Assembly (NCBI GenBank): GCA_963844965.1
Contig: CAWJQC010000009.1
Span: forward strand, 1 to 64,000
Length of the DNA stretch: 64,000 nt
Source of the DNA: an uncultured bacterium
Lineage (GTDB): Bacteria; Patescibacteriota; Minisyncoccia; UBA6257; 2-01-FULL-56-20
Direction: 5' to 3'
Shown: piece by piece, positions 7,063 through 51,401 of the stretch
Position numbering within the stretch: the first letter of the stretch is position 1
Layout of the letters: each line of letters opens with the position of its first letter
Position numbers and translations under genes: made by a program
Notes under the pieces: generated by a model
What the model was told of the DNA's origin: nothing
Database searches by the model: none
Seen by the model: the letters and a program-made list of their open reading frames with translations, nothing else

Positions 7063-7183
7063 ATATCACGCCGACCGGGGGTGCGGGGTTTTTGTCTCTT
7101 GGGACGCTGGAGTAAGAGGCTCAAACTGGCTAATTTCGGTCATAATATGACTGTGGATAACTTTCGGTTTACTTTCGGTATTA

Positions 7184-7199
7184 TGGTATAATCAAATCT
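7184..7199 (+). promoter_or_regulatory. extended -10 promoter (TGgTATAAT) ending 7 nt before the ATG: predicted leaderless transcript of the LexA-methyltransferase gene; upstream TTTCGGT repeats (7125-7180)
   Basis: Sequence ggtattaTGgTATAATcaaatctATG. Three TTTCGGT copies and a GTCATaatATGAC palindrome lie just upstream. Confidence 0.45.
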
Positions 7200-8654
7200 A
7201 TGATTACAAAAAGACAAAAACAAATTTTAGATTTGATTACGAGCTATACCAAGAAGCATGGATTTGCTCCTTTATTAGAAGAAGTTAGAAAGCGGTTGCA
7301 CCTACGTTCAATTTCAACGGTTCACCAACATGTTGAAGCTCTCAAAAATAAAGGTTATTTGCTAAAACAAAAAAATCAACGCCGCGGTATAGAGATATCG
7401 AAGTCCGAAAAACTAGTTCAAGTGCCACTTCTCGGCACAATTGCCGCTGGTCAACCGATTGAAGCCATTGAAGATAAAGAAAATATGGTTGTGCCGCGAA
7501 ATAAACTCCCCAGAACTGGTGAAGTATATGCCCTGCGAGTACAAGGCGACAGTATGATTGACGAAAACATTCACGATGGCGACACCATTCTAGTTAAAAA
7601 ACAAAACACCGCCGAAAATGGCGACAAAGTAGTCGCGCTCCTTAATGGGAACGAAGCGACGCTTAAAACTTTTTATAAAGAAAGGGGGCAAATACGACTA
7701 CAACCAGCAAATAAAAATTATCAGCCAGTTATAGTAAAAAACGGGCAACAACTTTCTTTGCAAGGCATCCTATTTGACGTGATCCGAACAAGCGAAGCAG
7801 AACAATCAACTAAATCCTTCGTTTTGTCACCCCGAAAAGATGCCCTGCGACGAGGCAAAATCTCCGACTACCTCAATAAAGTTTACAATGGTGACATAAT
7901 GCACGTTCTAAAAAACTTGCCCGACAACAGCGTTGATATGATATTCGGAGATCCTGATTACAATGTTGGCATAAGATATGGCAGTAATAGTTATACGAGA
8001 GACTTCGATGATTATATAAATTGGTATATAGAACTTACCAAAGAATCAATGCGTGTGTTAAAAAATGACGGCAATATTTTTATGATGAACTACCCGAAGC
8101 AAAATGCACATCTCCGCGTCAAATATTTAGATTTATACTTTCCACACATTAACGAATACGTTTGGGTTTACAATACAAATGTCGGACATACACCAAAAAG
8201 GTTTACAACGGCACATAGAACCATACTCCATGTCAGAAAATGCGCTAATAATAAGTTTTACAAAGACGCCGTCGCACTTCCCTATAAAAATCCAACGGAT
8301 AGAAGAATCCGACAAAATTTAGCGAATGGCTCAAAAGGAAGAATGCCCTATTCTTGGCTTGAGTTTAATCTTGTGAAAAATGTGAGTAGAGAAAAAACTT
8401 ACCATGCCTGCCAAATCCCACAAAAACTAACCGAGATGCTAGTTAAAGCGTCAACCAAACAAGGGGATATAGTGCTAGTTCTCTTCGGTGGCAGTGGTGC
8501 GGAAATAGATGTATGTAGAAATTTAAAACGCCAGTTTATCTCCGCTGAAATAGATAAAAAATACTGCGATATTATAAACAGCCGACTTGCAAACGGCTAC
8601 ATTGATAAGCAATATCGCCTTGGACCACGAGGCAAGAAAATATCTATGGGATAA
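7200..8654 (+). CDS. fusion protein: full LexA-like repressor (HTH + S24 autopeptidase) fused in frame to a beta-class N6-adenine/N4-cytosine DNA methyltransferase
   Basis: N-terminal part: wHTH, IAAGQP (Ala-Gly cleavage site), GDSM (Ser nucleophile), TLKTF (Lys). C-terminal part: motif IV FGDPDYNVG before motif I LVLFGGSGAEID, which is the beta-class order. One continuous 484-aa ORF in about 36% GC DNA. Confidence 0.75.
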   Translation: MITKRQKQILDLITSYTKKHGFAPLLEEVRKRLHLRSISTVHQHVEALKNKGYLLKQKNQRRGIEISKSEKLVQVPLLGTIAAGQPIEAIEDKENMVVPRNKLPRTGEVYALRVQGDSMIDENIHDGDTILVKKQNTAENGDKVVALLNGNEATLKTFYKERGQIRLQPANKNYQPVIVKNGQQLSLQGILFDVIRTSEAEQSTKSFVLSPRKDALRRGKISDYLNKVYNGDIMHVLKNLPDNSVDMIFGDPDYNVGIRYGSNSYTRDFDDYINWYIELTKESMRVLKNDGNIFMMNYPKQNAHLRVKYLDLYFPHINEYVWVYNTNVGHTPKRFTTAHRTILHVRKCANNKFYKDAVALPYKNPTDRRIRQNLANGSKGRMPYSWLEFNLVKNVSREKTYHACQIPQKLTEMLVKASTKQGDIVLVLFGGSGAEIDVCRNLKRQFISAEIDKKYCDIINSRLANGYIDKQYRLGPRGKKISMG

Positions 8655-9282
8655 TCTTTCGCATACTGGCTGCGTCAAAATGATTTTCGCAAACAAGTAT
8701 AAGAGCCGCGTAAAACTTGTCGCGCCCCGCGCCCTTGCTTGTTGGCCCACCATTCCTGTTTTGTAATCTATATGGCATTGTTGAGCCGCATTCTTTCCAA
8801 GATAATTTATAGTTTAGATCCTCTTGCGCCCACATCCATTTCAGCATCTCTAAAAATTGCCGGGAATCAATACCACCGAGCTTTGGCGGTTCTTTATCAA
8901 TAGTATTATTATCATGTAGCCGTACTATCATTTTCCAAAATTTTTTATTTTTCTTTTTGTGAGTTTCAAAATCTTTTAAAAGATTTGCATAGGTAAAGCC
9001 AACCGAGCTTCCTTCATGCCCTTTTTCAAAGGGAACAACCTCAAAATCATAAAGATTTGCCCAAAGAGATGAATTTTTATTCGGCCTTTTTAATGTGCGT
9101 TGTTTTAACTTATAGCCCGGATACCGAATACCGATACGGGGTTTCGCGATAGTACCTTCCACAATAAATAAATGAGAACCAACCGGTGCGGTATGATAAG
9201 GGAGTAATTCCAGTGTTAAGTTTTTAAAAAAATTCAAACCTCCTGAAATATGTAGTTCGTGTATTTTGGTAGATTTAGACAT
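8644..9282 (-). CDS. hypothetical protein convergent with and overlapping the methyltransferase 3-prime end; candidate cognate restriction endonuclease (unverified)
   Basis: 212 aa from ATG 9282 (MSKSTKIHELHISGG...). Same AT-rich islet as the MTase. No recognisable motif beyond a possible D...E.K pattern. Confidence 0.4.
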   Translation of the reverse strand: MSKSTKIHELHISGGLNFFKNLTLELLPYHTAPVGSHLFIVEGTIAKPRIGIRYPGYKLKQRTLKRPNKNSSLWANLYDFEVVPFEKGHEGSSVGFTYANLLKDFETHKKKNKKFWKMIVRLHDNNTIDKEPPKLGGIDSRQFLEMLKWMWAQEDLNYKLSWKECGSTMPYRLQNRNGGPTSKGAGRDKFYAALILVCENHFDAASMRKIIP

Positions 9283-16199: not shown

Positions 16200-16830
16200 A
16201 CATTTTAATTATAGCATACTTTCTCTAATTCTGTCAATCACCGCGGGCTAAAGCCCGCGGCTTGTGTTCGGCTCCTGTTCCCACTGGTTTCTGATATATT
16301 CTCTCATCGCTTTTTCGTTTTGACGGCCAACGGTTTCGGCAAAGTAACCATCCTGCCACAAGCTGTCTCCCCAGAGGAATTCTTCCAGCTCGGGAAATTC
16401 TTTTCTGACAGCCCTGGACGTACCGCCTTTGAGATAAAACACCGCTTTGGCAACCGTCAGGGTAGCAGGAATTTGAAGCAATAGATGGACATGGTCGGGC
16501 ATTATCTGCGCTTCATGGATGAACCATTTATTCATCTTGGCGGCTTGAAAGAACAATGTCTTGAGTCGCCCGACCATGTCCCCTCGCAGTATCGAGCGGC
16601 GGTACTTTGGGCAGAAAACAACGTGGTACAAACATCGCGTATAGCTGTGGTTGCTTGGCCAGAATCCAGAGGGCATTATCTTCATTATCGCACCGGCAGA
16701 AACCAGTGGGAACAGGCAAATAAGCCCTCCGCCCCTCGCTTCGCTCGGGGCTACGGGGTCGCCTTATCCTCGGCCTAAAGGCCGGGGCTTGCGGCGGAGC
16801 GGGTCAAGGTAAAATAATGCGGTAGAAATA
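16200..16830 (-). mobile_element. IS200/IS605-family element (tnpA only) with hairpin-forming ends
   Basis: Y1 HUH transposase gene flanked by palindromes (ccgcgggctaaagcccgcgg at about 16243; ggcctaaaggccgggg at about 16770). A perfect 19-bp inverted repeat (16262-16280 / 16698-16716) brackets the CDS. Confidence 0.7.
16248..16685 (-). CDS. tnpA: IS200/IS605 family transposase TnpA (Y1 HUH)
   Basis: YHVVFCPKYRR, HVHLLLQIP (HUH), LKGGTSRAVRKEF and WQDGYFAETVG (catalytic Tyr region) are classic IS200 TnpA motifs. Confidence 0.88.
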   Translation of the reverse strand: MKIMPSGFWPSNHSYTRCLYHVVFCPKYRRSILRGDMVGRLKTLFFQAAKMNKWFIHEAQIMPDHVHLLLQIPATLTVAKAVFYLKGGTSRAVRKEFPELEEFLWGDSLWQDGYFAETVGRQNEKAMREYIRNQWEQEPNTSRGL

Positions 16831-24888: not shown

Positions 24889-25485
24889 CTAGATGTATTT
24901 GTAGGATATTTTTCCGTATTCGTCTGTTGTTTTTATTAAAACAAATTCTAGGTTTCCATTGCGGATTGTTCTCTCTATTGAGCTCTGAACTTTCTCCTCG
25001 GTCCTATTTTTTGCAGACTTAGCCATGAAAGATATTTTTTCAATATTGTCTTTGGTAGTCATGCCATGGAAAACAACAAATTCAACCGGCGAAAACAACA
25101 ATCTCACATCTTTTGGGTAGATATCTCGTTTTAGGAAAATCTTATCCATGCCTATTTTCTTTATTTGATTCACGGCCTGTCTTCTGCCCCTAAGCTTCAC
25201 CTTCCTTGTATAAATTGGCTCAACTTTTTCGTACTGCTCTTGTTTATCAGCTAAATCATTTTGTAGATCATTAAAATCCCATCCCAATAAATCAACTTGG
25301 CCTCTGTAAGAATCAAGCCTCTCTTGTTCTTCGATAATCTTACTTAATTCTGGCAATGTTACCCTTTTGCCCATTACGAAAAGGATGACGGCACTTAATT
25401 GAAAGGTCTTATTACAGCATGGGCATATACCAAACATATAATGCCGCTCTTTATAAAACAGAACCAAAAATTTTGTAATATCCAT
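24889..25485 (-). CDS. hypothetical protein, paralog A of a tandem pair: N-terminal CxxC zinc-ribbon, coiled coil, C-terminal putative PD-(D/E)xK/Hjc-like nuclease fold
   Basis: 198 aa. CPCCNKTF; C-terminal VEFVVFHG...EKISFMAKSAKN aligns with paralog B. AT-rich. Confidence 0.4.
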   Translation of the reverse strand: MDITKFLVLFYKERHYMFGICPCCNKTFQLSAVILFVMGKRVTLPELSKIIEEQERLDSYRGQVDLLGWDFNDLQNDLADKQEQYEKVEPIYTRKVKLRGRRQAVNQIKKIGMDKIFLKRDIYPKDVRLLFSPVEFVVFHGMTTKDNIEKISFMAKSAKNRTEEKVQSSIERTIRNGNLEFVLIKTTDEYGKISYKYI

Positions 25486-25486
25486 T

Positions 25487-26053
25487 TTAATAAGGTATTA
25501 AGTTGACAGTTTGTTTTCCCTCTTTGGCTTCTTTGACCCGTTCCCTTACCTGACGCTGGGTTCTATTTAGGGACTGCTGGCCTGTCTTGGCTTCAATAAA
25601 TGAAATTTTTTCAACCCTTCCCTTTTTTGTTAGTCCGCCAAAAGATATGTAATCAATTGGGTTTAATATGGCCCTACAGTCCCCTCTATCAAACCTGAAC
25701 TTGTTTAAGGCCGGTAAAATTTGGTCGAATATTTGGCCAATGTTTGTATACTTTGTAATAACTTGAACCCTCTTGGGTCTCTCTATTTTGCGATGTTTTA
25801 ATTTTTTTATTTTTTCTTTTATGTCTTCGATTTTTTTCAACCAAGTCTGCTCGTCTTTCTTTGTTTCTTCAAAACCCTTTTTGATATTATTGCGTTGCTG
25901 ATCTAATTTATTTAAAACATACCCAGGGTATGGTTTTTTTCTGATATCAAAAAGGTGGGCACTCTTCACACCAAAAGTTTCTCCGCATTTATTGCATTTA
26001 ATTGTCAGGCCCCTAACGCTCTCCAGTATTTTTATTATGTCAATTTCGTTCAC
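25487..26053 (-). CDS. hypothetical protein, paralog B: N-terminal CxxC zinc-ribbon, coiled coil, C-terminal Hjc/PD-(D/E)xK-like motif (IDYISF...IEAKTG)
   Basis: 188 aa. CNKCGETF; D-Y-I...(E)KISFIEAKT resembles Holliday-junction-resolvase/archaeal Hjc-type D...E.K catalytic arrangement. Confidence 0.4.
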   Translation of the reverse strand: MNEIDIIKILESVRGLTIKCNKCGETFGVKSAHLFDIRKKPYPGYVLNKLDQQRNNIKKGFEETKKDEQTWLKKIEDIKEKIKKLKHRKIERPKRVQVITKYTNIGQIFDQILPALNKFRFDRGDCRAILNPIDYISFGGLTKKGRVEKISFIEAKTGQQSLNRTQRQVRERVKEAKEGKQTVNLIPY

Positions 26054-34917: not shown

Positions 34918-34961
34918 ATGGAAATTAGTGTAACAGCATTCTAACAAAAAGTAAACACTTG

Positions 34962-35034
34962 TACCCCCACTAGGAATCGGACCTAGGTCAACTGCTTAAA
35001 AGGCAGCTGCTCTACCACTGAGCTATGGGGGCTG
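34962..35034 (-). tRNA. tRNA-Lys (anticodon UUU)
   Basis: Reverse strand GCCCCCATAGCTCAGTGGTAGAGCAGCTGCCTTTTAAGCAGTTGACCTAGGTCCGATTCCTAGTGGGGGTA folds as a cloverleaf: 7-bp acceptor, D-arm AGCTCAGTGGTAGAGC, anticodon loop CTTTTAA, T-arm GGTCCGATTCC. CCA not encoded. Confidence 0.8.
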
Positions 35035-35156
35035 ACCTGTATTATAACTTCTAATTTGGTTATTTTCAAACAAACAGAGCCGCTCTAAGGCGGCCTGAAG
35101 TGGATAGGTTTATTTAGACATTAATTCGATGATTTTTGTAACCCTATCCCACCGCG

Positions 35157-35687
35157 TTACTTGCTATTTCTCATTCGTTTTATCACTTCGCCAAATCTTC
35201 GCTCGAACTTATTTTTTGGTACTTGGCTACTATAGTGGAGAGCATAGTCCACTTTTATCTCTTTAGAAATTCGTGGCTCAATAAACGGCCCGAAGCTCGC
35301 CTCATAAGTTCTTCTACCCAAAACTACAATGGCTTTCGGTCGTATAATTTCTATTTCTTTAAGTAGGAATGGTAACCATTTCTGTATTTCTTTCTCTGTC
35401 GGTTGTCTTGGTCTATCTCCCGCCTTAACAATGTCGGTTACATAACTCCCGGCGACACCATATTTAACCATCATTTCTTGAAGAAATTTGTCTCTGGTTG
35501 TCCTGCTGAAATTGGGGTATTTATTTCTATTAGATTTTTCTTCGGGCTTATTCATAGACGGCATCTCTGCGACAAACATAAAATTAAACCGTTCCCGTGA
35601 GTCCTTTGGCAAAAATACCCCGCTCGATTCCCGTGATGGCTTTAGTTTTTTATTAAGATTTTTTAGTTTGTCTAGCTTACTGTTCAT
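35157..35687 (-). CDS. putative uracil-DNA glycosylase superfamily protein (family 4/5-like, divergent)
   Basis: 176 aa. FVAEMPS (degenerate GE.PG-type motif A region), AIVVLGRRTY, ALHYSS (motif B-like His). Weak. Confidence 0.3.
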   Translation of the reverse strand: MNSKLDKLKNLNKKLKPSRESSGVFLPKDSRERFNFMFVAEMPSMNKPEEKSNRNKYPNFSRTTRDKFLQEMMVKYGVAGSYVTDIVKAGDRPRQPTEKEIQKWLPFLLKEIEIIRPKAIVVLGRRTYEASFGPFIEPRISKEIKVDYALHYSSQVPKNKFERRFGEVIKRMRNSK

Positions 35688-35707
35688 AGAAAAACTCTTC
35701 TATCTTT

Positions 35708-35888
35708 TCATCTTTTCGATTCACTGATTTTCTTTTTGCAATCTTTGCAAATACCAGCCATTTGTTCGTCCCAATTGCTTAAATATTTTTTACAACTTAC
35801 ACACCGATTGGTTTCGGGAGTGGGAAGATGACACTTAGGACAAGAAGACATTCCGCCATATACAGCACCGCATTTGCAATTTGGCATA
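35708..35888 (-). CDS. small zinc-ribbon protein (59 aa, two CxxC pairs plus extra Cys), not in the ORF track
   Basis: Reverse strand ATG at 35888: MPNCKCGAVYGGMSSCPKCHLPTPETNRCVSCKKYLSNWDEQMAGICKDCKKKISESKR*. Confidence 0.35.
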
Positions 35889-35935
35889 ATTTCGTATTTT
35901 TATTTTATATTTTTACTATATACGCGCGCGACCTT

Positions 35936-36493
35936 TCATCTATTTTTCCTTTCAAGACGCACAATCCACCTTATTTTTTCTTTTTCCACGTCGGTGGGTG
36001 GGTTAACAGATAAACCCTCGAGTTTTTTAGATATTAGATCTTCGGTAAGTCCGCTATTAAGTCCCTCGTCTATAATATCGGCGACTCTTTTAAACTCTGG
36101 ACGATGCGTTTTTTGATAGGCAAACAGCATGTCCGCGGCGTAATCAATAAACTTCTCACCATTAGACGAGAGAGTGCCCCCGTAATCGTCCAGTGGTAGA
36201 CCCCCCTCTTCGCTCTTTCCAGCTATATCATGCACGGTTTTGACAATCTCCTTGGCATCGGAATCGGAGAGGGCTTGGAAACGTTTTACCGCGGCATATA
36301 CTGATGTGATGATTTGATCCTCGGTAAGACCGCCGCGCAAACCCCTTCTTGCTATTCCCGAAAATACTTTCTTCGATTCGCCACCAGCTGATTGGAAAAT
36401 TTTAAATATTCCGTAAAGAAAACCAAAAATCAGCGAGAACACAACGGCGAAAAGACCGAAATCACTACCATCTTTTTTGTTTGATCCTGCCAT
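35936..36493 (-). CDS. hypothetical membrane-anchored protein with internal G(L/N)(R/S)GGLTED(Q/L)II repeats
   Basis: 185 aa, one N-terminal TM helix, repeats RGLRGGLTEDQIITSV / EGLNSGLTEDLISKKL. Confidence 0.4.
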   Translation of the reverse strand: MAGSNKKDGSDFGLFAVVFSLIFGFLYGIFKIFQSAGGESKKVFSGIARRGLRGGLTEDQIITSVYAAVKRFQALSDSDAKEIVKTVHDIAGKSEEGGLPLDDYGGTLSSNGEKFIDYAADMLFAYQKTHRPEFKRVADIIDEGLNSGLTEDLISKKLEGLSVNPPTDVEKEKIRWIVRLERKNR

Positions 36494-38940: not shown

Positions 38941-41079
38941 TTATGCGGGCGGCTGTTGAGGTTTTTCTTCGCCTCTGCCTTCGTTCCCTTTATTATAGAA
39001 CGACTGGCCGATTTTTTGAACTTCCGCCGAAAGGGCGGCACTCGCGGATTTTATCGCTTCCAGGTCGCCGCTATCCTTAACCTTCTTGAGCGCTTCAACT
39101 TTTTCGTTCACCGCGTTCTTGATATCAGCGCCGATCTTATCTCCGGCGTCCTTCAAAGATTTTTCGGCGAGGTAAACCAGCGCTTCCGCCTGGTTGCGCG
39201 TATCGGCAAGTTCCTTTTTCCGCGCGTCGTCTGCGGCGTGTTCGGCGGCTTCCTTGCGCAACTTTTCAATTTCATCTTTGGACAAGTGGGTCGTCGCCTC
39301 AATTTTCACCGATTGCGATTTTCCCGACGCCTTGTCCTTGGCCGAGACGGAGAGTATCCCGTTGGCGTCAATGTCAAAAGTCACTTCAACCTGCGGAACG
39401 CCGCGAGGCGCGGGCGGTATGCCGTCCAGAATGAACCGCGCCAGGGTTTTGTTGTCCGCCGCCATTGGCCGTTCTCCTTGAAGAACGTGAACTTCCACCG
39501 ACGTTTGCATGTCCGCGGCCGTGGAGAAAACCTGTGTCTTCGCCGTCGGCACGGTGGTGTTTTTCTGGATCATCGGCGTCGCCACGCCGCCCAACGTTTC
39601 AATGCTTAAAGTGAGCGGCGTTACGTCCAAAAGCAAGATGTCCTTCACGTCGCCCTGGAGAATTCCCGCCTGCACGGCGGCTCCCACGGCTACGACCTCA
39701 TCGGGATTGATCCCCTTGTGCGGCTCCTTTCCGAAAAGTTTTTTCACCGCTTCCACCATCGCCGGCATTCTCGTCTGCCCGCCGACCAGAACCACTTCGT
39801 TGATGTCCGACAGTTTGAACCCGGCGCCTTTCGGCGGCGGGGCGGTCACCGTCTCGCGCGTAAGTTCTATGGAACGAGCTATGTAATCCTCAACGAGATT
39901 CTCCAATTTGGCGCGGCTGAGTTTTATCAGAAAATGCTTTGGGCCGGAAGCGTCGGAAGTAATATACGGAAGATTAATTTCGGTTTCCGTGGAAGTAGAA
40001 AGCTCGTGCTTCGCGCGTTCAGCAGCTTCTTTGAGACGCTGGAGCGCGAGCGGGTCCTTTGATATATCAATGCCTTCCCGCTTCTTGTATTCCGCGACCA
40101 AATATTCGTTGATACGCTTGTCAAAATCGTCGCCGCCCAGGTGCGTGTCGCCGCCGGTCGCCTTCACCTCAACGGTGTCGTCGCCGACCTCAAGGACGGA
40201 GATGTCAAAAGTTCCGCCGCCGAAATCGTAGACAATGATTTTTTCGCTTTTTTGGCGGTTCATCCCGTAAGCCAGGGCAGCCGCAGTCGGCTCGTTAATG
40301 ATTCGCCTAACCTTGAATCCCGCGATTTCCCCGGAATTTTTTGTCGCCTGCCGCTGCGAATCGTCAAAGTAAGCGGGCACGGTGATAACCGCCTCTTCCA
40401 CTTTTTCTCCCAGTTTCGCCTCTGCGTCGGCTTTAAGTTTTCCTAACATCATCGCGGACATTTCTTCCGGCGAATACCATTTATCGCCCATTTTTATTTC
40501 AACACCGCCGGATGCGCTTTGCTGGATGTCATAAGGCAGCCATGCCTTGTCGCGCTGGACTTCGGGGTCGGTCCATTTGCGGCCGATAAGGCGCTTTACG
40601 GAAAAAATCGTGTTCTTGGGATTCGTAATCGCTTGCCGCTTAGCGAGCAATCCGACGAGCCGCTCGCCGTTCTTTGAAATCGCGACTATGGAAGGCGTCG
40701 TGCGGTTGCCCTCGGGATTCTCAAGTATGCGCGGCTCGCCGCCTTCCGTTACGGCAACCGCGGAATTAGTTGTTCCCAAGTCAATTCCAATTATTTTTTT
40801 TCCCGTAGATTCACTGGCCGTAAATTCTGCCTCAAACGCACCTTCCCCGCTCGGCAGTAAAAACGGTTTTTCTTTCACCAAAAGAAAATCCCAATCTCCG
40901 AAATCGCCACCTTTAAAAAGATTCTCTAACCCGGATTTAGAAAATATCCCGGAGGGAGCTTTCTTAATTAAAACTGTTAAAATCCTTTTGCCGCCACCAC
41001 CGGTGGCAATAGCATCTTTCAGAACTTCTACTTCTAGACCTTTATTCTTACAAAATTTTTCAATTTTATCGTAGGACAT
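38941..41079 (-). CDS. dnaK: molecular chaperone DnaK (Hsp70) with an unusual approx. 95-aa N-terminal extension
   Basis: 712 aa. [11 protein letters not shown] begins at residue 97. DLGGGTFD, full NBD and SBD. No Met or alternative start codon between 41079 and the canonical Hsp70 start. Confidence 0.88.
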
Positions 41080-41114
41080 TTTATTATTTATTTTAATTAT
41101 TTTTCTAATTCGAC

Positions 41115-42041
41115 TTATTGCAGTTCCTCGACTTTATAGCTCCACGTTACGTCGTTAAACACCCCACTACTGACGGTTAAAAGGTACGTACCCGGACCAA
41201 ACCCATTATAGGTGCCACTTACTGTTTGGCCATCGGCAACTGGAATATTGTGAACGAACGTACCAAAAGGAATGGGATTTGAAGCATCCAGCAAACTCTT
41301 GATTCTCACAAAATCCAGGTCTTGCTTATTTTCTTCGGCGGTTGTTGGCCATGTATTTGAAGTTACATGATTTGTCATGGTCCATTGTACCCTCCATCGC
41401 TGAGAGGTTATTTGGAACGGCGGCGGATATTTTCTGTCTGTATAAGCTCGTGGGTCAGTTGACCTCGCTATACTGTTACCACGAGAAATCTCGACCCATA
41501 TCCCTGCTTGCGGGGTTGTAGACTGGGATATTACTTTATAAGTGGAGTCATCGGTAATTAGTATTGGTGTCGTTACAGATAAATTCGCTATTGTTTGGGA
41601 TGTATAGGAACTCGGATCACGCAAAGCATTGCCGTTATCGCTGCCAAGGGACCCCAAATACGTACCATTGAAAGAAATTTTATTACCGGGCATCAAATTC
41701 AAATTGTTGACTGTTTTAGGCAGGATGAAAGCAACTGCAGTATTACCTTGACTATCTTTAAGAACGAGACAGCAGTTCATCTCCATGCTTTGTATTGTGC
41801 CCTCGAATTGAGATGAATTCTCGGATGACAAATCTTGGCCAGAAAATTGTTCGATGGGAGATTGTTGCGTTGAGGCCAGAGGTGTTTTTGTCGTGGACGA
41901 TGCGGTTTGCAACTGATTTGTAGGCGTCGGAGATAAGGGCGGAGGTATTGCCACCGGAGTCTGGTTGTACAGTAGCCCGCCAGTTATAGCCACAACGAAA
42001 ATCGCACCGATTACTATAGACCATTTATATTTTGTCCACAT
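41115..42041 (-). CDS. hypothetical membrane-anchored secreted protein inserted between grpE and dnaK
   Basis: 308 aa, N-terminal TM ([16 protein letters not shown]), S/T/Q-rich linker, no known domain. Confidence 0.4.
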
Positions 42042-42064
42042 AGTATTTTTAAATGATAATCTAT

Positions 42065-42817
42065 TTACTTTCGCTTAAATTGAATTGACGGGCCAACTTC
42101 GTTGTGCTCCGAAAATCCGACCACGCGCCAGTCTTTAAATTGTGCCGCATCGAAAACATTTTTTATCTTCTCAAAAGAATCTGAAACAGAAAGCTCTAAC
42201 GGGACAGATAGAATTGACTTGTCATTAGTCCAAAGTGGATAAGGTGTCGTACGTTTAATGACTAAATTATGGCTTTTGCAAAATTCTTCAATCTCTTGAA
42301 CGTTGCCCTTGCTAACTTTAACCCTCGCCGGCCTTAATATTTTATCATAAATTCTGTAGCCGGGCTCTATTTCTTCCAAAACGGTCCCTTCTGGCTTATC
42401 GGATTCGGCGGCGGCAACCGCTTCGGCGGACGACGGGTCAAATTTGTCGCCGACCTTCACCTCAATCCGTTCCACGCCGCGCTTTCGCAAAATATCCTCT
42501 ATCTGCGTTCTAATCATATAAATTCCCTTATCCACAGAGCCGGATTTTTCCATAGCTCTCAATCCCAGGTCAAAATTATCAATAATCGCGATCAAATCTC
42601 TTATGAGTTCTACACTGCCGTAGCGCGCGATATCTTCCAAACGCTGCATTTCTTCCTTTTTATAGTTAATGAAGTCCGCTTTCGCTCTCTGCCAGCCGGC
42701 GAGATACTCAGCTTTTTCTTTCTCGCATTTCTCTAGTTTTTCTTTCAATTCTTTGACTTCGCCGCTGTCCGCGCCGCTTGCTTCCGAATTTTTCTTTTTA
42801 TCTTCTTCGTCTCCCAT
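42065..42817 (-). CDS. grpE: nucleotide exchange factor GrpE
   Basis: 250 aa. Acidic N-terminus, coiled coil, GrpE C-terminal beta-domain (RTQIEDILRKRGVERIEVKVGDKFDPS..AEAV). Sits between hrcA and dnaK. Confidence 0.8.
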   Translation of the reverse strand: MGDEEDKKKNSEASGADSGEVKELKEKLEKCEKEKAEYLAGWQRAKADFINYKKEEMQRLEDIARYGSVELIRDLIAIIDNFDLGLRAMEKSGSVDKGIYMIRTQIEDILRKRGVERIEVKVGDKFDPSSAEAVAAAESDKPEGTVLEEIEPGYRIYDKILRPARVKVSKGNVQEIEEFCKSHNLVIKRTTPYPLWTNDKSILSVPLELSVSDSFEKIKNVFDAAQFKDWRVVGFSEHNEVGPSIQFKRK

Positions 42818-43437
42818 TATTTTTTATTGCTTAATTCTTTGAAAATACCCAGGACCTTTTTATAGTTCATTCTCTTCGGGCCGATAGCCAAAAGAAGAAC
42901 GCCGCCGCCGTTTGCCCCGTAGCTTCCCGAGATGACCGCCAAATCCCCACTTTTCGTCACCGGACTTTTCCTACCGATAAAGACCTGCGGCTCGGCGGAT
43001 TTTTTTAATTTTTTCTCCGCTCTGCCCAGTCGCTCGTCAAGCTCCGCGAAGTCGCGGACAATTTCTTTGATCGCGTCCGGCGTTTCCCACTCCGGCCGTT
43101 CCACGAGATTTTCAATCCCCTCTTTGTATATCTCGCCGCCTCCGCTCGCGACGCCCAAAAGTTCAAGTTCGTCCGAAAGGAATTCCGCGAGTCCCGCCAA
43201 GGCGTGCCTCGCGAACAAATTCCTCACGGACCACAAACCAAAAAACGATTCCTCCTCGGCAAGAATCCGATTGGCGAAAAATTCGTAACCGGCGTCGCTC
43301 GGGACCCTGCCGGCGGAGTGGTGTGGCTGTTCCAAAAACCCTTCGTTGGATAATTTCTCCAGTTCCAGCCGTATCATCGCCGGTTTAATGCCAAAATCGC
43401 AATGTTCGTAAAGCCAGCCGGAACTTATCGGCTCGTC
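42817..43437 (-). CDS. hrcA: heat-inducible repressor HrcA, 5-prime truncated (N-terminal winged-helix lost at the junction with the GC-rich block)
   Basis: The frame is open to 43485, but HrcA-like sequence (..SSGWLYEHCDFGIKPAMIRLELEKLSNEGFLEQPHHSAGRVPSDAGYEF..) ends at about 43440 where composition switches. About 30-50 N-terminal residues are absent. Confidence 0.6.
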   Translation of the reverse strand, partial: DEPISSGWLYEHCDFGIKPAMIRLELEKLSNEGFLEQPHHSAGRVPSDAGYEFFANRILAEEESFFGLWSVRNLFARHALAGLAEFLSDELELLGVASGGGEIYKEGIENLVERPEWETPDAIKEIVRDFAELDERLGRAEKKLKKSAEPQVFIGRKSPVTKSGDLAVISGSYGANGGGVLLLAIGPKRMNYKKVLGIFKELSNKK

Positions 43438-43440
43438 TGA

Positions 43441-45250
43441 GTCGACAGCCGGCCGGAAATCGGCACCTGGAGCACAGCGGCAGCGCTACACATAGACACC
43501 AACGGCAACTCGATCTTCGATCCCGACAACCTCGATTTCACCAACCGCGACCTGGTCTACAGCTTCGGCTTCTCCACCGACAACATGTTCTCCGGCAACT
43601 TCAGCCCGATCGGGGCCGCAGCGGCCGACGGCTTCGACAAGCTGGCCGCCTACGGCAAGATCGGCACGCAATATCGTTGGATCGTCAACACCAATAACGA
43701 CGGCGTGCCGGACGATGGTGGTCAACGACCCGGCGAACATCAACGGCTTGCCGGTCGCCGGCAACTTCGACGGCAACGCCGCCAACGGCGACGAGGTCGG
43801 GCTGTTCGACGGCGCAACTGGTGGCTCGACACGAATCACGACTACAAAGTCAACACGAAAATCGTCAGCTCGTTGCGGGGTTATCCGATCGTGGGCGACT
43901 TCGACGGCGACCACAACTTCGACCTGGCGACCTACCAGGTCAACCCGGTCAACAAGTTCTTCTTCGAGTTGGAGCCGCTAGTGCCACGCCGGTGTTCAAG
44001 AGCATCGATGCCGCGAGCCAGTTCGGCTACATTGGCGTTCGCTCACGGCCGGTCGCGGCCGACATCGAGCGCGACGGCACGACCGACGTGGGGCTGTGGG
44101 TGCCGGACCGCACCGGCGCCACGGGCGACCACATCGGCGAATGGTCGTTCCTGCTCTCCAATTTCGTAGACGCAGCAAGGGCACGGTCAGTACGCTGGAC
44201 CATCAGTTTTCGCCGACGCCGTTGAGCACGACCTGCTTCGCCCGCTTCGGCAACGAGTTCCCTGCCGATGGTGGGTAATTTTGATCCGCCGCTGGCCAGC
44301 GTCAAGGCGGGGCCGGCGATTTCCGGCGTGGTGCTGACCGTTTCCGGGACGAAGCCGACGGTCACTTGGGCGGTGGACGCCGGCCGAGCATTGCCGCGGC
44401 GACGTTGTTGGTGGACGGCAAGGCGGTGGCGGTTTCCAAGCTATCGGGCAGCGCGACGCACGGCAGCTATTCCGCCGGCGCTGGCGGGGTTGAACCTGGC
44501 GGCGGGCAGTCACAGCTTTGTGATCAAGGCCACGGACTCGGCGGGCACGCCCGCCACGACGCAATGCACGGGCACGTTCGACGTCGTCGGGCCGACGATC
44601 AAGGGCGTGGCACTGTCGGTTGCGAAGGGCCTACTCACGTGGAACGCGGTTTCGCCGAACGGCATGGCCGGCGTTGCCCTGATGATCGACAACAAGTCGG
44701 TGTCGAAGATCGCGCTACGCCGTCGGAATTACGCTGGGACGATGGGTTTGCCGGGGATCGGCACCACAAGTACGTCATCACGGCCACCGACAAGACCGGC
44801 AAGAGCGTGACGCTAAGCGACAGTTTTGTCGTTACCGCCCCGACGATCAGCAACGTAGCGATAGCGGCTGCGAAGGGCTTGATCACGTGGACGGCTGCGG
44901 CTTCGCGGCGTGGCGAGTGTTGGTCTGACGATCGACGGCAAGCGAGTGTCGAACACAAGCGGTCCCAACGCGGCGGGGAACTGCTACGGGTTGGCGGGCA
45001 AGCTGCCGGCGGGCACGCACAAGTACGTCATCACGGTCACTGACAAGGGTGGCAAAGCGGTGACGCTTGGCGGTTCGTTCGTGGTGAGCAAGCCGTCCAA
45101 GGCTGTGCAGAGCACCGCGATATCGAGTGCAAGCCGGCTCTGCGTTGTCCGATTCGGCCAAGGTTGCCTGGCTTTACGATCTTGGCGGTTTGACCGGCAC
45201 ATCGTCGAGTACGACCAAAAAGAGCACGTCCGCCCAAGCCGCGGACACCG
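43441..45250 (+). pseudogene. 5-prime-truncated, multiply frameshifted gene for a secreted FG-GAP / Ig-like-repeat surface protein (GC about 65%, foreign-looking)
   Basis: Protein-like segments in alternating frames: NTNNDGVPDD, AGNFDGNAANGDEVGLFDG and IVGDFDGDHNFDL (FG-GAP-like), then three approx. 100-aa Ig-like repeats (..GSHSFVIKATDSAGT.. / ..HKYVITATDKTGKSVTL.. / ..HKYVITVTDKGGKAVTL..). At least 6 frame changes. Confidence 0.5.
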
Positions 45251-45689
45251 TTATTGCCCGCTACTGAGCAGGGTTACAAGGATCGAGAAGCGGTTGAGGC
45301 GACAAGCGACATTGCCTTGTCGTAAGGATAGCATGCGTCGGGACGAGGGTTTCGAAATGGCACTATTTCGGGAGCGAACGCCTGGTCGCAGGATGGGTGC
45401 ATTTACTTACAGGATGTTTCGCCGTGAGAGTTCACCCGACAGGCGGTTGAGGATTTTTTTGAGGGTTGTGCCAACCATCTCCTGATTACCAATTGAGGTT
45501 TGGTGTTAAGAATAAGTGAAACTTGGCTCTCCGACTCGTCTGTATCGGGCGGGGATCGGCGAATCGGACGGGCCCGTCTGCCGGAGCCGTTGATCTTATA
45601 CCAGTCATTTAGAGTCGATCACCGCCGGCTCAGCCTTGCTCTGAGCCAGCCCAATAAGGGAGATTTCTGCCATGTGGTAACACCAAGCC

Positions 45690-48600
45690 ATGGGATTCCG
45701 TAACAACTCGCGACGTTCCTCCTCCGCCACGCGGCAGAAGTCGAAGCCATTCTCGATGCGAAACCGACACGCAGCATTTGAACCCCTCGAAGAGCGTCAG
45801 TTGCTGAGCGTCACGCTGACGGGCGTGCCGGATTGGGTCGCTAAGGGTACCGCCCCGATCGTTGCCGGCAACAGCGACAACGTTACGGGGATGACGCCCG
45901 CCACCAGCCTGGAAGTCGGCGCTGTGAACGCTCTGGCGGTCGACCCGACAAACACCAAGCATCTCTTTGCGGCCACCGTGAATGGCGGCATCTGGCAAAC
46001 CAACGACTTCACCGTGGCGAACCCGACCTGGACCACCAGCACGGATCTCATGCCGTCGCTGGCGATCAGCGCTATCGCCTTCAGCCCCACTAACAGCAGC
46101 GTCATCTATGCCGGAACGGGCAGCTACAGTTCCACGGGTGGCGGTGTGGGCGGGGCCGGCATGGGTGGCGGCTCTGTCGGGCTGTACAAGTCAATCAATG
46201 GCGGGGCCACCTGGCAGGTCATCGACCCGAATGGCATCTTCACCGGACTGCGCAGTCCGGCGAGTTGTCCCGAGACGCTTAACGGAGGCCAAACCGTCTT
46301 TGCGGCCGCGACCGATACGGCGGCCGGGAGCGGCGGCGTCTACCGCTCGGACGATGGCGGCGGCACCTGGACGCGGCTCTCGGGCGATAACGGCCTGCCC
46401 AACGCGGGCGTCACCGACCTGGTGGCTAATCCGGCCAACGCCAACCAGTTCTTCGCTGCGGTCGCCGGCGGATCCGGCGGCGCCGGCGGCACGGGCGGCA
46501 TCTTCAGCCTCGATCTATCGGTGAATACAACCTGGACGAACATTACGGGTAATATCAACACCATCAATCCCGGCGTGCTCAACAATGCGATCCGGGTGGA
46601 GTTGTCTGTCAGCATCGCCGGAGTGAATCCGATCTGGGCGAGCGTGATCAACAGCAGCGGCTTCTACGCCGACGTCTTCCGGGCGCCGAACGCCGCATCG
46701 CCCACATGGGCGGCCGTCGGACCCGGCGGTTTGCTTCCGGACGTTCTCCAAGGCAATCAGGGTGGCGTTCACGGCTCCATCGAGGCCGACCCCAACTCCG
46801 ACACGGTCGTGTACATCGGCGGCGATGCAAAGCAGACTGCCAGTCCCTTTAGCGGGTATCTTGCCCGAGGTGATTCCGGCACCAACACCTGAACCGGCAT
46901 GACCCCCGTCGATACCGTGACGGCGAACCCTGGCCTGACCGTCATCCCGACGGCTAATGGCGTCACCGCCGCCCCGCATCCGGACACCCGCAACCTGGTT
47001 TTTGCCTCTGGCGGAGTCCTGCTGGTATCGTGCGACGGCGGCGTCTACCAAGCCACAAACCCGACGGGGGCCGGGCCGGCGATGGCCTGGACTTCGATTA
47101 ACGGCACCCTCGAAGACAGCGAGTTTTACACGGTTTCCTATGACAACCGAAACACGGCAGCCACGGCCGACGATCTAATCGAGGGGGCCGCCCAGGACGA
47201 CAGCTCGAGTGAGCGGAACACGGCTGCCGTTTGGAACACCCAGACAGGCGGCGATGGCACCGTCGTGCTGGCTGACCCCATCAGCGACACACGCTATTTC
47301 TCGATGCAGAACTACTTCATGGGTAGTGTCATCGGCGGGGGCGGCGTCAATCGACCCGCCGGCACTGTCGCGGGCACGGGGGGCAAGGTTCTGAACGCGG
47401 CTAACGCCGGCACCAAGGCCGAGACGTTCCCCTTTACCCCCGCCTTCCAAATCAACCAGGGGGACATCGGCAGCGGGGCGGGCACGGCACGGGTTATCCT
47501 GGGGGGCAATCAGACGCTCTATGTCTCCAGCGACCAGGCAGCCAACTACACCTCGATCGGCGGCACAACTGCAAATAACCCCGACCCCGTGACCAACCTA
47601 ACCGCCCGGGTGATCACGATCGCGTTTGGTGCGGCGACCAATACGAATGCCTGCTACGTCGCTATGTCCGACGGCAACGTCACCAAGACGACGGACATCA
47701 CCACTGCCGGCGGTGGTTTCAGCCTCACGACCTTCCTTGCGACGGCCGGCGGTGAGGATGGCGCAGGGTATGGCGATCGATCCCAACGACGCGAATACGG
47801 TCTACGTAATCACTCTGACGCGCAGCCTGCGTGACCACGGACGGCGGCACTACGTGGGCCAACATCACGGACAACCTGGCATCCCTGTTCACTCCGGGCT
47901 TTGCCAGCAACGTGAGTCCGAGTCAGGAGCGGGGGATCACCCTGTTCAACAACGGCACGGCAACGAAGGCCGACGACGTGCTGTTGATCGGCGGTCCAGG
48001 CGGTGTCTTTCGGCGTCTGGCCGCATCGCCCCCGGGTGGCATTTGGAGCCAATATGGCGTTGATTTGCCCAACGTGCTGGTCGACAGTCTGCAATATGAC
48101 CAACTGAGCGATACGCTTCTGGCTGGCACTTTTGGCCGCGGCGACTGGACGGTTAGCAGCGTTGCCACCACAATTAACGCCGCTGGCGTGATGGTGATCT
48201 GCGGCGACCAGGATTTTGCCAACGAAGACGACACCTTTAAGCTGGTCCGCGACCCCGGCGATCCGTTGCTGTTGGATGTGTTTCAGAACAACACCACCAC
48301 TACCCCCGACTTCCAAGTGCCGTTGGCGGTGGTCCAGCAGATCGACGTCTTCGCCGCCGGCGGCAACGACAACTTGATTGTTGACAGCAGCAACGGCCTG
48401 ATCAGCGTCGCCGGCGGCATTCGTTACGACGCCGATCACGGCTGCCCGGGCGACACAGCCGCCGGAATCGGCGGTTTCGACCGCCTCACCCTCACCCAGA
48501 ATCTGACGGGTGGCCCCGCCATCGCTTCCGATCAATTGGCGCCGGGTGCCACCCCGGGCGACGGCATCAGCACCGTCAACGACACGGCCGGCAACGTCCA

Positions 48601-51223
48601 GACGATTGATTTCCAGTACCTCGAACCGGTTGTCGATAACGTCCCCTCGCCGACGTTCGATATCGCCGCCGTCCCCGGATTGGCGAGTCTGCTGGACGCC
48701 GACAACGCCATCGACTATACGGCCAGCCAGATTCTGCTTACCGGCGGCCGCGTGACGATCGACAATTTCGAGCCGATCGAGTTCGAGAACAAGGTCACCT
48801 TGGTCATCGACGCCGGGGCCGGCAGTGATGCGATCAATCTGAACAATCCCACCACGCCCACCGGCCTGGCGGCCATCACCGTCAACGGTGGCGACCCGTC
48901 GCTCGCCGATACGATCACCGTCAACGGCATCAAGGGGGCTACGGACCATTTCGTGGTGCTGCCCACGGCCGCAGGCAACGGAAACATTTTCGACACCGAC
49001 ACAGCGAGCGCCAAATATCGCCCCCGAGGTTCACTATTCCGGCATGCAAGGGGTCAACGTCGTGGGCCAAAACGCGGATGCGGACGCCTTGGCGGACGGA
49101 GGAACTGTGGGCGACGACTCGTTCACCTATAATCCTGGCACGACCGCGTCTTCCGGAGAGATTCACGGTTTCAACAGCGGTTTCTCCTTTGGGGCCTTGA
49201 CCTTTAACGGAATCACCGGCTGGGTCACGATGGGATCGCCTTTGGTGAACCTTACCGCAGGTTCGGCGACCGGCCTCCTCGTCCTCGGCGGCCACGACAC
49301 GGTGGTCATCGACGGGACGGCGGCTGACGATTCCTTCAATTGGGACAATTCTCTTGTATTCCTGCAGGTGCGAGTGGACACTGGCGGCGACCTTCACACC
49401 CCCATCGTCCTGGCCGGCGACCAAATCGTTGGATACGTTTCACACGTCATTGTGCAGGGGCTCGACGGCAACGACACGTTCAATGTGATTCCTGGGGGGG
49501 CCCCTGGCAGTGACTTGTTCGACATCCGCATCGAAGGAGGGGATTCCGATAGCTTTACCGACACACTAAACCTCAGCGGCGCCGTCGGCCCGGTGGGGGT
49601 GAATCTGGCCGACAGCACCGTGCCCTCCGACACCTCGATAACCGGCTACGGCAGCACCGTCACGCTCACCGGCGTCGAGTTGGTCCACATGGATGTCAAC
49701 GGCACAAACCCTGACGGTCACGGGCACGGCGGGCGCGGACCAGTTCAACTTCACGCCCACGGCGCTGGGCGTCGGCAGTTTCAAGGTCACGACCACCGGC
49801 GCCATCGTCGAGACCAGCCCGCAATTCACCTATACCGGCGTGGCGGCCACGGGCGTCACGCTCAACGGCGGTACGGGCGGATTCGACGTGCTGGGACTGA
49901 CGGCCACGGCCGGCAACGACACGATCAACGCCGTGCAGACCGACGCCACGCATTTGAGCTTCACCCTCAACGCGTTCACGCAGCCTTTCATTTTCGCCAC
50001 GCCGGCTTCGGTGCCAGGGGTCAACATCTACGCCGGCGCCGGCGATGACTTGATTCGCGTGAGCGTGACCAATGCGCTGGAAAGCACCACGCCGAGCGCC
50101 AGCCTGCGGTTCACGGTCGACGGCGGCGAGCCCAATGCCAGCGATCGGCTGCTCGTGAACGACGACGGCATTGGCGACCTGACTATCCTTCGCCAGGGCC
50201 CCGATGATCGAAGCGGCTCGGTGACGGTGGGCGTTCTGAATCCCGTTGTCTATGAAAACGTCGAGCGTCTCGACGTCACGCCGCTTAATCCCATCACCGG
50301 TGGGACCGGCACTGACGGCAACGGCCGCATCTTCGTCATGCATCAGAATCCGTTCGAGACCAACGACAGCCTCGCGAACGCACGGCGCAGATCGAGCGGC
50401 TGGCCGATTCGCCGACCAGCCCCACGATCGACCCGGCCGGCCTCAATACCCCTCCGTTTACGGTCAGCGGCGACGAAGATTGGTACGTCTTCCGTCCCAA
50501 GTTCACCACGGACTACCAAGTCCGCATCCTGTTCCATCGCATCGTGGCTTTGGCGAACGGCCGGCCTGGCCTGCCGGGCACCGGCGACTTGTCGCTCGAC
50601 ATCTACGACGCCAACGGGGCGTTGATCGTCTCCGGCGTGGCCGATGGAAACGGCGACAACCGCACGGCCATTTTCGGGGCCACGCCCACCGTGGCACAGT
50701 TCGCCACGATCTATATCCGCGTCAAAGGCGGAGAAGCGCCAGCTGGCGCCTCGGTCAATCTCTACGACTTCGACAACATCACCGCATTGACGTTCCCGGT
50801 GCCACCGGGGGTCGGCAACGTGGACGTGTTCGGTCCCCAGGTCACCGGCGTGGCCATCACCACCGCGCCGGCCTACAACTTGTTCGATCCCAAGGAATTC
50901 ACACATGGCGGCCTGGGCCCGACGCCATTGGTAAACGGCCTGACCATCAGTTTCAAGGATTTACCGGCACGCACCCCGGGCTTCGTCTATCCGGCCCTCG
51001 ATCCGGCCACGGCCAGCACCCGGGCACTTATGTGGTCAAGGGAGATGCCAACGGCATCGTTCAGATCTCGCAGATCATCGTGACCAACAACCCGCCGGCG
51101 GTGGGACAGGTGCCCACGGCGACGGTCCAACTGGTTTTCGCCCAGCCGTTGCCCGACGATCGCTTCACGTTGACGATCAACGACAATCTGCTCGATCCGG
51201 CCACCGCGTCTATAAATCCCTGA
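45690..51223 (+). pseudogene. large Planctomycetes-type secreted BNR/Asp-box repeat protein gene, disrupted by an in-frame TGA (46890) and at least 8 frameshifts
   Basis: N-terminus RRSSSATRQKSKPFSMRNRHAAFEPLEERQLLSV (planctomycete-type N-terminal motif). BNR repeats SINGGATWQ, SDDGGGTWT, TTDGGTTWA. C-terminal PPC-like segment DEDWYVFRPKFTTDYQVRI. The reading frame hops 0>0>1>2>0>1>0>2. Confidence 0.5.
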
Positions 51224-51401
51224 ACCGCCGCCTCCAAAATTTTCTGCGTTCTTTCCGTAAACATGGAGTAATCGCGAATAATGCGAATCTATTTTAAATA
51301 ATGCGAATATTATTATTAGTGTTATTTGCTATCATTCGCATTATTAGCGAACACTCCGAATTATAGTCCTATTGGCAATCTTGTCAAGCGATTGCTAATA
51401 C

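Follow-up and report, generated by a model that had tools for sequence, protein, structure and literature searches.

The 64,000-nucleotide stretch analysed here (hereafter the window) belongs to contig CAWJQC010000009.1 of an uncultured Patescibacteriota bacterium (assembly GCA_963844965.1), and its hrcA gene, upstream of grpE and dnaK, is interrupted by a block of Planctomycetota-like DNA. The block is a clean insertion of 7,767 bp (43444-51210, plus strand, 60-67% GC) that is distinct from the host in both GC content and tetranucleotide usage. Sliding GC is 0.60-0.68 inside ~43440-51210 versus 0.43-0.55 in the flanks, and tetranucleotide distance to the host is 0.047-0.050 for the block versus 0.010-0.024 for the remainder of the window, which makes the block the sole outlier; on both measures its makeup is unameliorated toward the host. 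An initial annotation, made from the letters alone, had described a GC-rich segment here and proposed the tetranucleotide comparison in which the block now stands out by itself. The left edge that it gave, ~43440, agrees with the sliding GC, while its right edge at 51223-51225 lies too far out, because the final codons of its open reading frame (ORF) are host sequence; the true edge is at 51207-51210. The plus-strand ORFs of the block are protein-like yet broken, and in the public record (NCBI, ENA) one 126,036-bp contig carries several of them together with DnaK and a 186-aa truncated HrcA. The interrupted gene and the block are made up of the following features.

42817-43443, minus strand: host hrcA from codon 19 (the duplicated GAC) to the stop, identified by the Pfam HrcA match and a gap-free alignment
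43441-43443, no strand: left junction triplet GTC, shared by host and donor
43444-51210, plus strand: foreign block of 7,767 bp, delimited by GC, tetranucleotides and homology; a single unit, circularly permuted, of a giant-gene locus
43441-45150, plus strand: 3' fragment of donor gene A, starting mid-domain (VDSRPEIGTW...), with FG-GAP-like and Ig-like (Big_13) repeats
45151-45689, plus strand: donor spacer, gene A ending before it and gene B starting after it, with a lower GC of ~0.54
45690-51207, plus strand: 5' fragment of donor gene B, ~1,840 codons, with the FEPLEERQLLSV motif, a BNR/sortilin-like propeller and repeat domains
51208-51210, no strand: right junction triplet GTC, hrcA codon 19 (GAC) on the minus strand
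51208-51264, minus strand: 5' stub of host hrcA, codons 1-19 (MFTERTQKILEAAVQGFID), identified by alignment of the rejoined protein

The two junctions and the split hrcA gene

The host hrcA gene is split rather than truncated. To the right of the block, on the minus strand, an ATG at 51264 is followed by MFTERTQKILEAAVQGFID down to 51208, which gives codons 1-19 intact; to the left, the frame is taken up again at 43443 with D-SDEPISSGWLYEHCDFGIKPAMIRLELEKL... and ends with the stop at 42817, so that codons 20-226 resume exactly where the stub ends and no host bases were lost at the insertion (0). The rejoined halves form a 226-aa HrcA with a match to Pfam PF01628 (47.9 bits) and without a gap at the joint in an alignment with 10 Patescibacteria HrcA proteins of 220-234 aa. 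The public annotation holds only a 186-aa ORF that starts at the ATG at 43377, and the window protein is 100% identical to it over those 186 aa. The initial annotation had taken the left junction to remove the N-terminal winged helix-turn-helix of HrcA; this was mistaken, since the first 19 codons are in place behind their promoter and rejoin the remainder without a gap.

On both sides of the block, the order of host genes is that of the nearest relative, L001 (RecR-DnaB-CysRS-CorA-hypothetical ... HrcA-GrpE-DnaK-hypothetical-DnaJ), in which hrcA is intact. Each host gene aligned to L001 full-length and in a single frame, and HrcA, GrpE, and DnaK of the flanks are of the Patescibacteria/Paceibacterota type. 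Since the host resumes at the next codon of the same gene and in the same gene order, the block is an insertion and not a contig join. The abrupt change in GC and in gene taxonomy is what an end-to-end join of unrelated contigs, or a contaminant brought in by binning, would produce. The continuity of hrcA and the conserved L001 gene order speak against the join, and a block that sits inside one contig does not involve binning at all, which leaves this explanation with hardly any probability. The initial annotation had raised a chimeric join or a contaminant; its suspicion of the assembly was sound, while the idea of an end-to-end join fails because the host locus continues base-perfect within hrcA and is syntenic on both sides.

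The triplet GTC, which corresponds to hrcA codon 19 (GAC), stands at both junctions and is the sole repeat flanking the block. At the left junction it is common to the host (GA GTC TAT) and to the donor, where a twin contig described below (L002) reads ACC GTC GAC. Its presence at both junctions could be read as a target-site duplication, but as the donor has GTC at the left end too, it may reflect microhomology or chance. Neither a tRNA nor an att-type site marks the insertion point: no tRNA or Rfam match was found near the block, and the only tRNA of the window is at 34961-35032. Terminal inverted repeats and long direct repeats were not found at the block ends, and Pfam scans of all block ORFs and of stitched translations recovered no integrase, transposase, or other mobility gene. 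An insertion sequence element or transposon was rejected for the lack of both a transposase and terminal inverted repeats in the block. The whole-gene cargo of genomic islands is likewise missing, both terminal genes being cut mid-domain.

Three further routes to these junctions were tried and rejected. Read as a SalI site, the GTCGAC at the left end would suit a restriction fragment, yet the right end has no such site. An un-split chimeric Nanopore read should carry an adapter remnant, and no Oxford Nanopore Technologies adapter sequence was found in the window. A homology-guided crossover was dropped since the 21-nt likeness between host and donor lies in tandem and does not overlap the junction. 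That likeness is an observation in its own right: host positions 43411-43432 (AGCCAGCCGGAACTTATCGGC) resemble donor positions 43447-43464 (AGCCGGCCGGAAATCGGC) with a local score of 12 (p ~0.002 against random host 40-mers).

A permuted donor unit and its twin contig

Where the initial annotation saw a single large protein, the block holds fragments of two genes: gene A contributes its last 1.7 kb (3' part) and gene B its first 5.5 kb (5' part), with ~540 bp of spacer between them. Gene B begins with MGFRNNSRRSSS...FEPLEERQLLSV, the N-terminal motif lying at 45765-45812, and is cut mid-domain at ...NDNLLDPATA. By blastn, similarity to the region upstream of the homologous gene on contig L020 begins at 45659. 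Homologues of the N-terminal region of gene B are 45-60% identical, and intact relatives carry a giant gene of ~2,700 aa (578 + 2156 aa on contig L021). The best species-level genome match of the block is the uncultured Planctomycetia bacterium MFD01231.bin.2.30, with other named homologues in Gemmatales, Pirellulaceae, and Planctomycetota, as the initial annotation had anticipated in predicting Planctomycetota matches. Its domain calls fared unevenly. Among Pfam families, Big_13 (Ig-like) scored over threshold, and the remaining matches in the block ORFs and stitched translations were weak propeller or repeat hits (FG-GAP_3, BNR, and Sortilin-Vps10 below threshold). The planctomycete N-terminal motif, Planc_extracel (PF07595), reached 18.6 bits at gene B residues 26-41 against a cut-off of 25.5 (22 bits in the L021 homologue), and the proposed PPC domain was not detected in the block by Pfam.

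Homologue mapping identifies the block as one circularly permuted unit of this donor giant gene. Against the 2156-aa L021 protein, the right end of the block (51014-51202) corresponds to residues 1473-1536 and the left end, in the gene A fragment (43441-44162), to residues 1572-1903, so that the two outer ends of the insert are neighbours in the donor. The same relation holds for DNA, with block position 51184 falling at 13648 and 43441 at 13769 of L020, and with 51193 falling at 16277 and 43441 at 16395 of L021, where the ends are 118 bp apart. Natural proteins cover the concatenate of right end and left end at 93-99%; the closest donor relative found with a junction-spanning query reached only 52% identity, and tblastx against the relatives was too noisy at this GC until filtered. 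By this mapping, the insert runs from a point P through the gene end, the spacer, and the gene start to ~100 bp short of P. Similarity of the block to L020 is ~70% in tail and head alike, and because it is equal in both, it suggests that genes A and B are a single gene or tandem copies of very recent origin, as opposed to old paralogues.

Two short sequences lie at the ends of the permuted unit. A 17-nt direct repeat, CTCGATCCGGCCAC(G/C)GC, occurs at 50997-51013 and, 194 nt further on, at 51191-51207; each copy codes for LDPATA, and that at 51191-51207 sits at the donor end of the right junction. Exactly at the left end of the block, the 33-mer GTCGACAGCCGGCCGGAAATCGGCACCTGGAGC (VDSRPEIGTWS) is identical in the block, in L002 (61-93), and in L020 (13769-13801), an unusual conservation given that L020 is otherwise only ~70% identical.

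A second copy of nearly the same unit exists as a contig of its own. A 433-aa ORF of the block clusters at ≥90% with a protein on L002, which is contig_116997 of ENA ERZ25039512, a 7,826-bp contig with a Flye-style name. Positions 61-7826 of L002 align to 43441-51181 of the window, so that its boundaries are nearly those of the block, and at its left it has 60 extra bases of true donor coding sequence, which read RASFPSGDGQPGGDFVARFT and then run on into VDSRPEIGTW. Overall identity is 92%, distributed as a mosaic of 73-100% per 250 bp (heterogeneity chi2 = 491, p = 3e-84). It rises to 100% over 48161-48410 and over 51127-51181 and falls to 73-87% over 43.4-44.4 kb and over 48.7-50.1 kb, and exact runs of 406, 314, and 208 bp are common to both copies. 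Mismatches follow codon position in the order third > first > second (63/46/26 and 68/46/30, p = 5e-4 each), which argues that they represent real allelic or paralogous variation of functional genes, as opposed to noise or neutral decay. The protein collection gave no other near-identical copies of the block or L002 proteins, and the native donor context was not recovered. Scans of Joint Genome Institute metagenomes gave no exact match for the host flank beside the junction or for the conserved donor 33-mer.

The indels of the two copies are complementary. In 44950-47800, it is L002 that lacks bases (16 gap runs versus 2), while in 48600-51181, bases are missing from the block (26 versus 1) and L002 is single-frame over 47853-49679 (Fisher p = 4e-9). 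A plot of reading frame by GC at third codon positions divides the block into 16 coding segments and hence 15 frame switches, in keeping with the minimum of 14 counted in the initial annotation: 9 in 43441-44950, i.e., all within ~1.5 kb of the gene A fragment, 0 in 44950-47725, and 6 in 47745-51022. Two features of gene B belong here.

46890-46892, plus strand: in-frame TGA, across which homologues align straight through; TGG (Trp of GTNTW) in L002
47745-51022, plus strand: six frame switches, at ~47745, 47836, 49035, 49704, 50405, and 51021

The TGA had already been pointed out in the initial annotation. Seven homologues can be followed through the block in a single frame from 45690 to ~47300, and in L002 they need at least 4 frames. 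Four of the switches (~47800, ~49700, ~50400, and ~51020) occur at about the same positions in L002, and the one at ~51017 is the loss of one base from a homopolymer (CCCC to CCC). Host genes are clean by comparison: over 9,207 nt of aligned host coding sequence there are 0 frameshifts versus 19 expected at the block rate (P = 5e-9). The uneven divergence, the codon-position pattern, the complementary indels, and the clean host genes therefore mark the lesions of the block as consensus errors or strain mixing, and of the options in the initial annotation, sequencing or assembly error is the one borne out.

These observations also bear on the idea of a fixed horizontal gene transfer in decay, in which the frame switches and the TGA would be real pseudogenising mutations. 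Dense lesions confined to the foreign block, and the presence of that block in the public record, are what such a transfer would leave. It also predicts even divergence, in place of which we see 73-100% per 250 bp with exact runs of up to 406 bp, and the substitutions keep the codon pattern of purifying selection. Lesions that complement those of L002, with four switches shared, fit consensus errors; GC and tetranucleotides are unameliorated; a consensus at full host coverage should match the clean flanks; and hrcA of the nearest relative is intact. A decaying fixed transfer, which the initial annotation had offered as recent and rapidly decaying, is thus highly improbable on account of the mosaic divergence, the codon pattern, the complementary lesions, and the clean host.

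Origin of the block

An important question is how one period of a planctomycete gene came to lie between two adjacent codons of hrcA. The sequencing background is informative here. Assemblies ERZ25039466, ERZ25039471, ERZ25039512, and ERZ25039519 all carry Flye-style "contig_N" names, contig_10471 of ERZ25039471 is a contig of the metagenome-assembled genome (MAG) MFD01231.bin.2.30, and the ERZ series of contig_116997 holds Nanopore assemblies of Microflora Danica (long-read project PRJEB58634). The ERZ accessions were without mention in searchable papers and supplements. The Microflora Danica long reads were Nanopore reads assembled with Flye 2.9.2 (--meta --nano-hq) and polished with one Medaka round (PMC12313526). 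Long-read metagenome assemblers, metaFlye among those benchmarked, yield chimeras of several phyla (Trigodet et al., bioRxiv 10.1101/2025.04.22.649783). Such assemblers can also report a variant backed by a single read, and duplicated regions in their assemblies lose reads to another copy (bioRxiv 10.1101/2025.04.22.649783). In sister assemblies of this series, the homologous giant gene is broken as well, into six ORFs on L020 (7184-14566) and two on L021 (10001-18152), and genes of this giant family seem to pick up consensus frameshifts readily in this Nanopore series.

We conclude that the block is probably an insertion-type inter-phylum assembly chimera, in which a collapsed loop or repeat edge was unrolled into the host contig. 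It most likely lies outside the Patescibacteria population genome and arose when metaFlye assembled Nanopore reads of a soil or sediment metagenome; the feature is real as sequence and most probably not real as biology. The initial annotation's distrust of the region was apt in that an assembly-type artefact is favoured. We infer the graph mechanism and the same-sample origin of the two contigs; what we observe directly is the anatomy of the insert, the existence of the sister contig, how the errors are distributed, and host genes free of frameshifts.

As we picture it, a low-abundance, strain-mixed Planctomycetota locus, comprising a giant secreted-protein gene in tandem copies or otherwise closed on itself, would collapse in the graph to a loop or repeat edge of ~7.8-7.9 kb. 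This edge would be attached inside hrcA through one host position, for which one chimeric read would be the simplest link, and the assembler would then cross the loop once, which would leave no host loss and one permuted donor period from the attachment point with a closure ~100 bp short. The same edge would also be output as the stand-alone contig_116997. At polishing, heterogeneous donor reads would be split between the two copies, giving patches of good quality and patches near raw-read quality; this division of reads would account for the frame switches and the TGA. A graph path split at one coordinate keeps host continuity automatically, while donor-side repeat boundaries are approximate. 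A self-loop or repeat edge crossed once is proposed because four observations would then go together: the host continues base for base, the insert is a single permuted period, its donor closure is imprecise, and the twin contig is cut at that same point.

The block resembles the chimeras of Trigodet et al. in its sudden shift of GC and gene taxonomy within one contig, in the duplication of its segment as another contig, presumably of the same assembly, in indels that break ORFs without support from biology, and in its origin in the metaFlye family of assemblers. It may differ in form: theirs merge stretches from at least two taxa, whereas ours is a base-precise A-B-A arrangement that holds a single permuted unit. 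Their diagnostic is read clipping, whereas the block is known here from assembled sequence alone.

Several points weigh against an assembly chimera. Coverage, clipping, and loop topology are deduced from the assembled sequence and not observed, and the window contig is only presumed to come from ERZ25039512, the assembly of L002. The giant gene is single-copy in the relatives L020, L021, and L003, whereas the graph artefact needs a cyclic donor topology. The 21-nt likeness of the host left flank to the donor left end (p ~0.002) remains unexplained, and a real insertion, too, would be expected to give a base-perfect A-B-A arrangement with a 3-bp repeat.

Such an insertion would be a rare one, in which ~7.8 kb of Planctomycetota DNA was taken up and integrated in hrcA of one or a few cells and the assembler kept the minority haplotype, either by illegitimate microhomology-guided recombination or by a single crossover of a circular or tandem-derived unit. 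The frameshifts would still be consensus errors, from low or mixed coverage. Its codon precision, the GTC at both junctions and also in the donor at the left end, and the lack of adapter remnants are in its favour, as is the finding that long-read assemblers can report single-read variants (bioRxiv 10.1101/2025.04.22.649783); a circular donor would moreover account for the permutation and for zero host loss. Yet ~100 bp are missing at the donor closure, including the 60 bp present in L002, which misfits a simple crossover with an intact circle, and it would take a coincidence for both ends of a linear fragment to fall within 100 bp of one position in the gene. With 7.8 kb of opposite-strand DNA in between, hrcA-grpE-dnaK would be cut off from the promoter, the operator, and 19 codons. 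No mobility functions were found, and random chromosomal capture across phyla has a very low prior when set against the assembler chimerism that has been documented. We therefore consider a genuine insertion unlikely, and the more specific event of a real, very recent capture of one tandem or circularised giant-gene unit into hrcA at a 3-bp microhomology, with no host loss, somewhat less likely again.

Known routes of integration match the block in part. Illegitimate integration at microhomology during natural transformation has been described in work on Acinetobacter baylyi and Streptococcus, and the block is similarly a random non-mobile chromosomal fragment with truncated end genes and ~3 bp shared at the junctions. 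Illegitimate integration, however, usually deletes host DNA or needs a homologous anchor, whereas here no host DNA is lost and the insert spans almost exactly one donor repeat period; the consensus quality of the block also speaks against its presence at the population level. A Campbell-type single crossover would likewise leave an insert flanked by a direct repeat, with no host loss and with permuted ends that are neighbours in the donor. Unlike such an integrant, the block has no integrase, no att-like site beyond the 3 bp, no replicon functions, and ~100 bp missing at closure. We know of no precedent for a circle with a single giant gene.

What is at stake differs between these accounts. 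If the block is an artefact, the 7.8 kb of Planctomycetota sequence on this public Patescibacteria MAG contig would be counted as horizontal transfer between phyla, spurious secreted-protein genes would be added to a genome of the Candidate Phyla Radiation (CPR), and hrcA would falsely look truncated. The combination of base-perfect host continuity, a one-period permuted insert, and a twin contig with complementary errors would then offer a signature by which this kind of error could be recognised without reads. A real capture, in turn, would show directly that an ultra-small soil bacterium can take up DNA from another phylum and integrate it illegitimately, would perhaps hint at physical association with a planctomycete, and would offer a rare snapshot of raw foreign DNA in a CPR genome.

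The host operon and its surroundings

The interrupted operon is otherwise intact, and its regulatory region lies to the right of the block.

51360-51398, minus strand: hrcA promoter (TTGACA-16-TATAAT, 12/12) and CIRCE-like repeat (51372-51398)
38941-42817, minus strand: operon downstream of hrcA, all intact, with grpE (42065-42817), an ORF of unknown function (41115-42041), and dnaK (38941-41079)

The sigma-70 promoter matches the consensus at 12 of 12 positions and runs from 51387 to 51360. It is overlapped by an inverted repeat, TTGGCAATC-N9-GATTGCTAA, that resembles the controlling inverted repeat of chaperone expression (CIRCE). In L001, TTGGCACTC-N9-GATTGCTAA occupies the corresponding place upstream of hrcA (6431-6457), and judging from these two repeats, TTGGCAATC-N9-GATTGCTAA may be a putative Patescibacteria variant of the HrcA operator. 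The host thus resembles known HrcA-CIRCE regulons in its short Patescibacteria-type HrcA (226 aa when rejoined), in a CIRCE-like repeat over a consensus promoter, and in having grpE and dnaK downstream, and it differs in that the repeat departs from the consensus TTAGCACTC-N9-GAGTGCTAA. This comparison covers the interrupted host gene only and not the block.

A few minor features of the host sequence may be added. Patches of low GC (0.36-0.41) at 7001-9000, 25001-26000, and 35001-36000 do not stand out in tetranucleotide usage when this is resolved at 4 kb. A 24-nt inverted repeat (51265-51288 and 51334-51357; 88% complementary, 45-nt spacer, three copies of TAATGCGAAT / ATTCGCATTA) separates the promoter from the start codon of hrcA and is absent in L001. 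The 308-aa ORF between grpE and dnaK (41115-42041, minus strand) has no Pfam match, and L001 has an unrelated 97-aa ORF at that place. DnaK carries an N-terminal extension of ~94 aa (40798-41079, minus strand) and GrpE a C-terminal extension of ~80 aa (~42065-42310, minus strand), both absent in L001, whose DnaK and GrpE are 620 and 178 aa long. The two extensions resemble one another (BLASTP E = 7e-7, 29% identity over 62 aa), with a common motif EKFCK/EEFCK ... DW.

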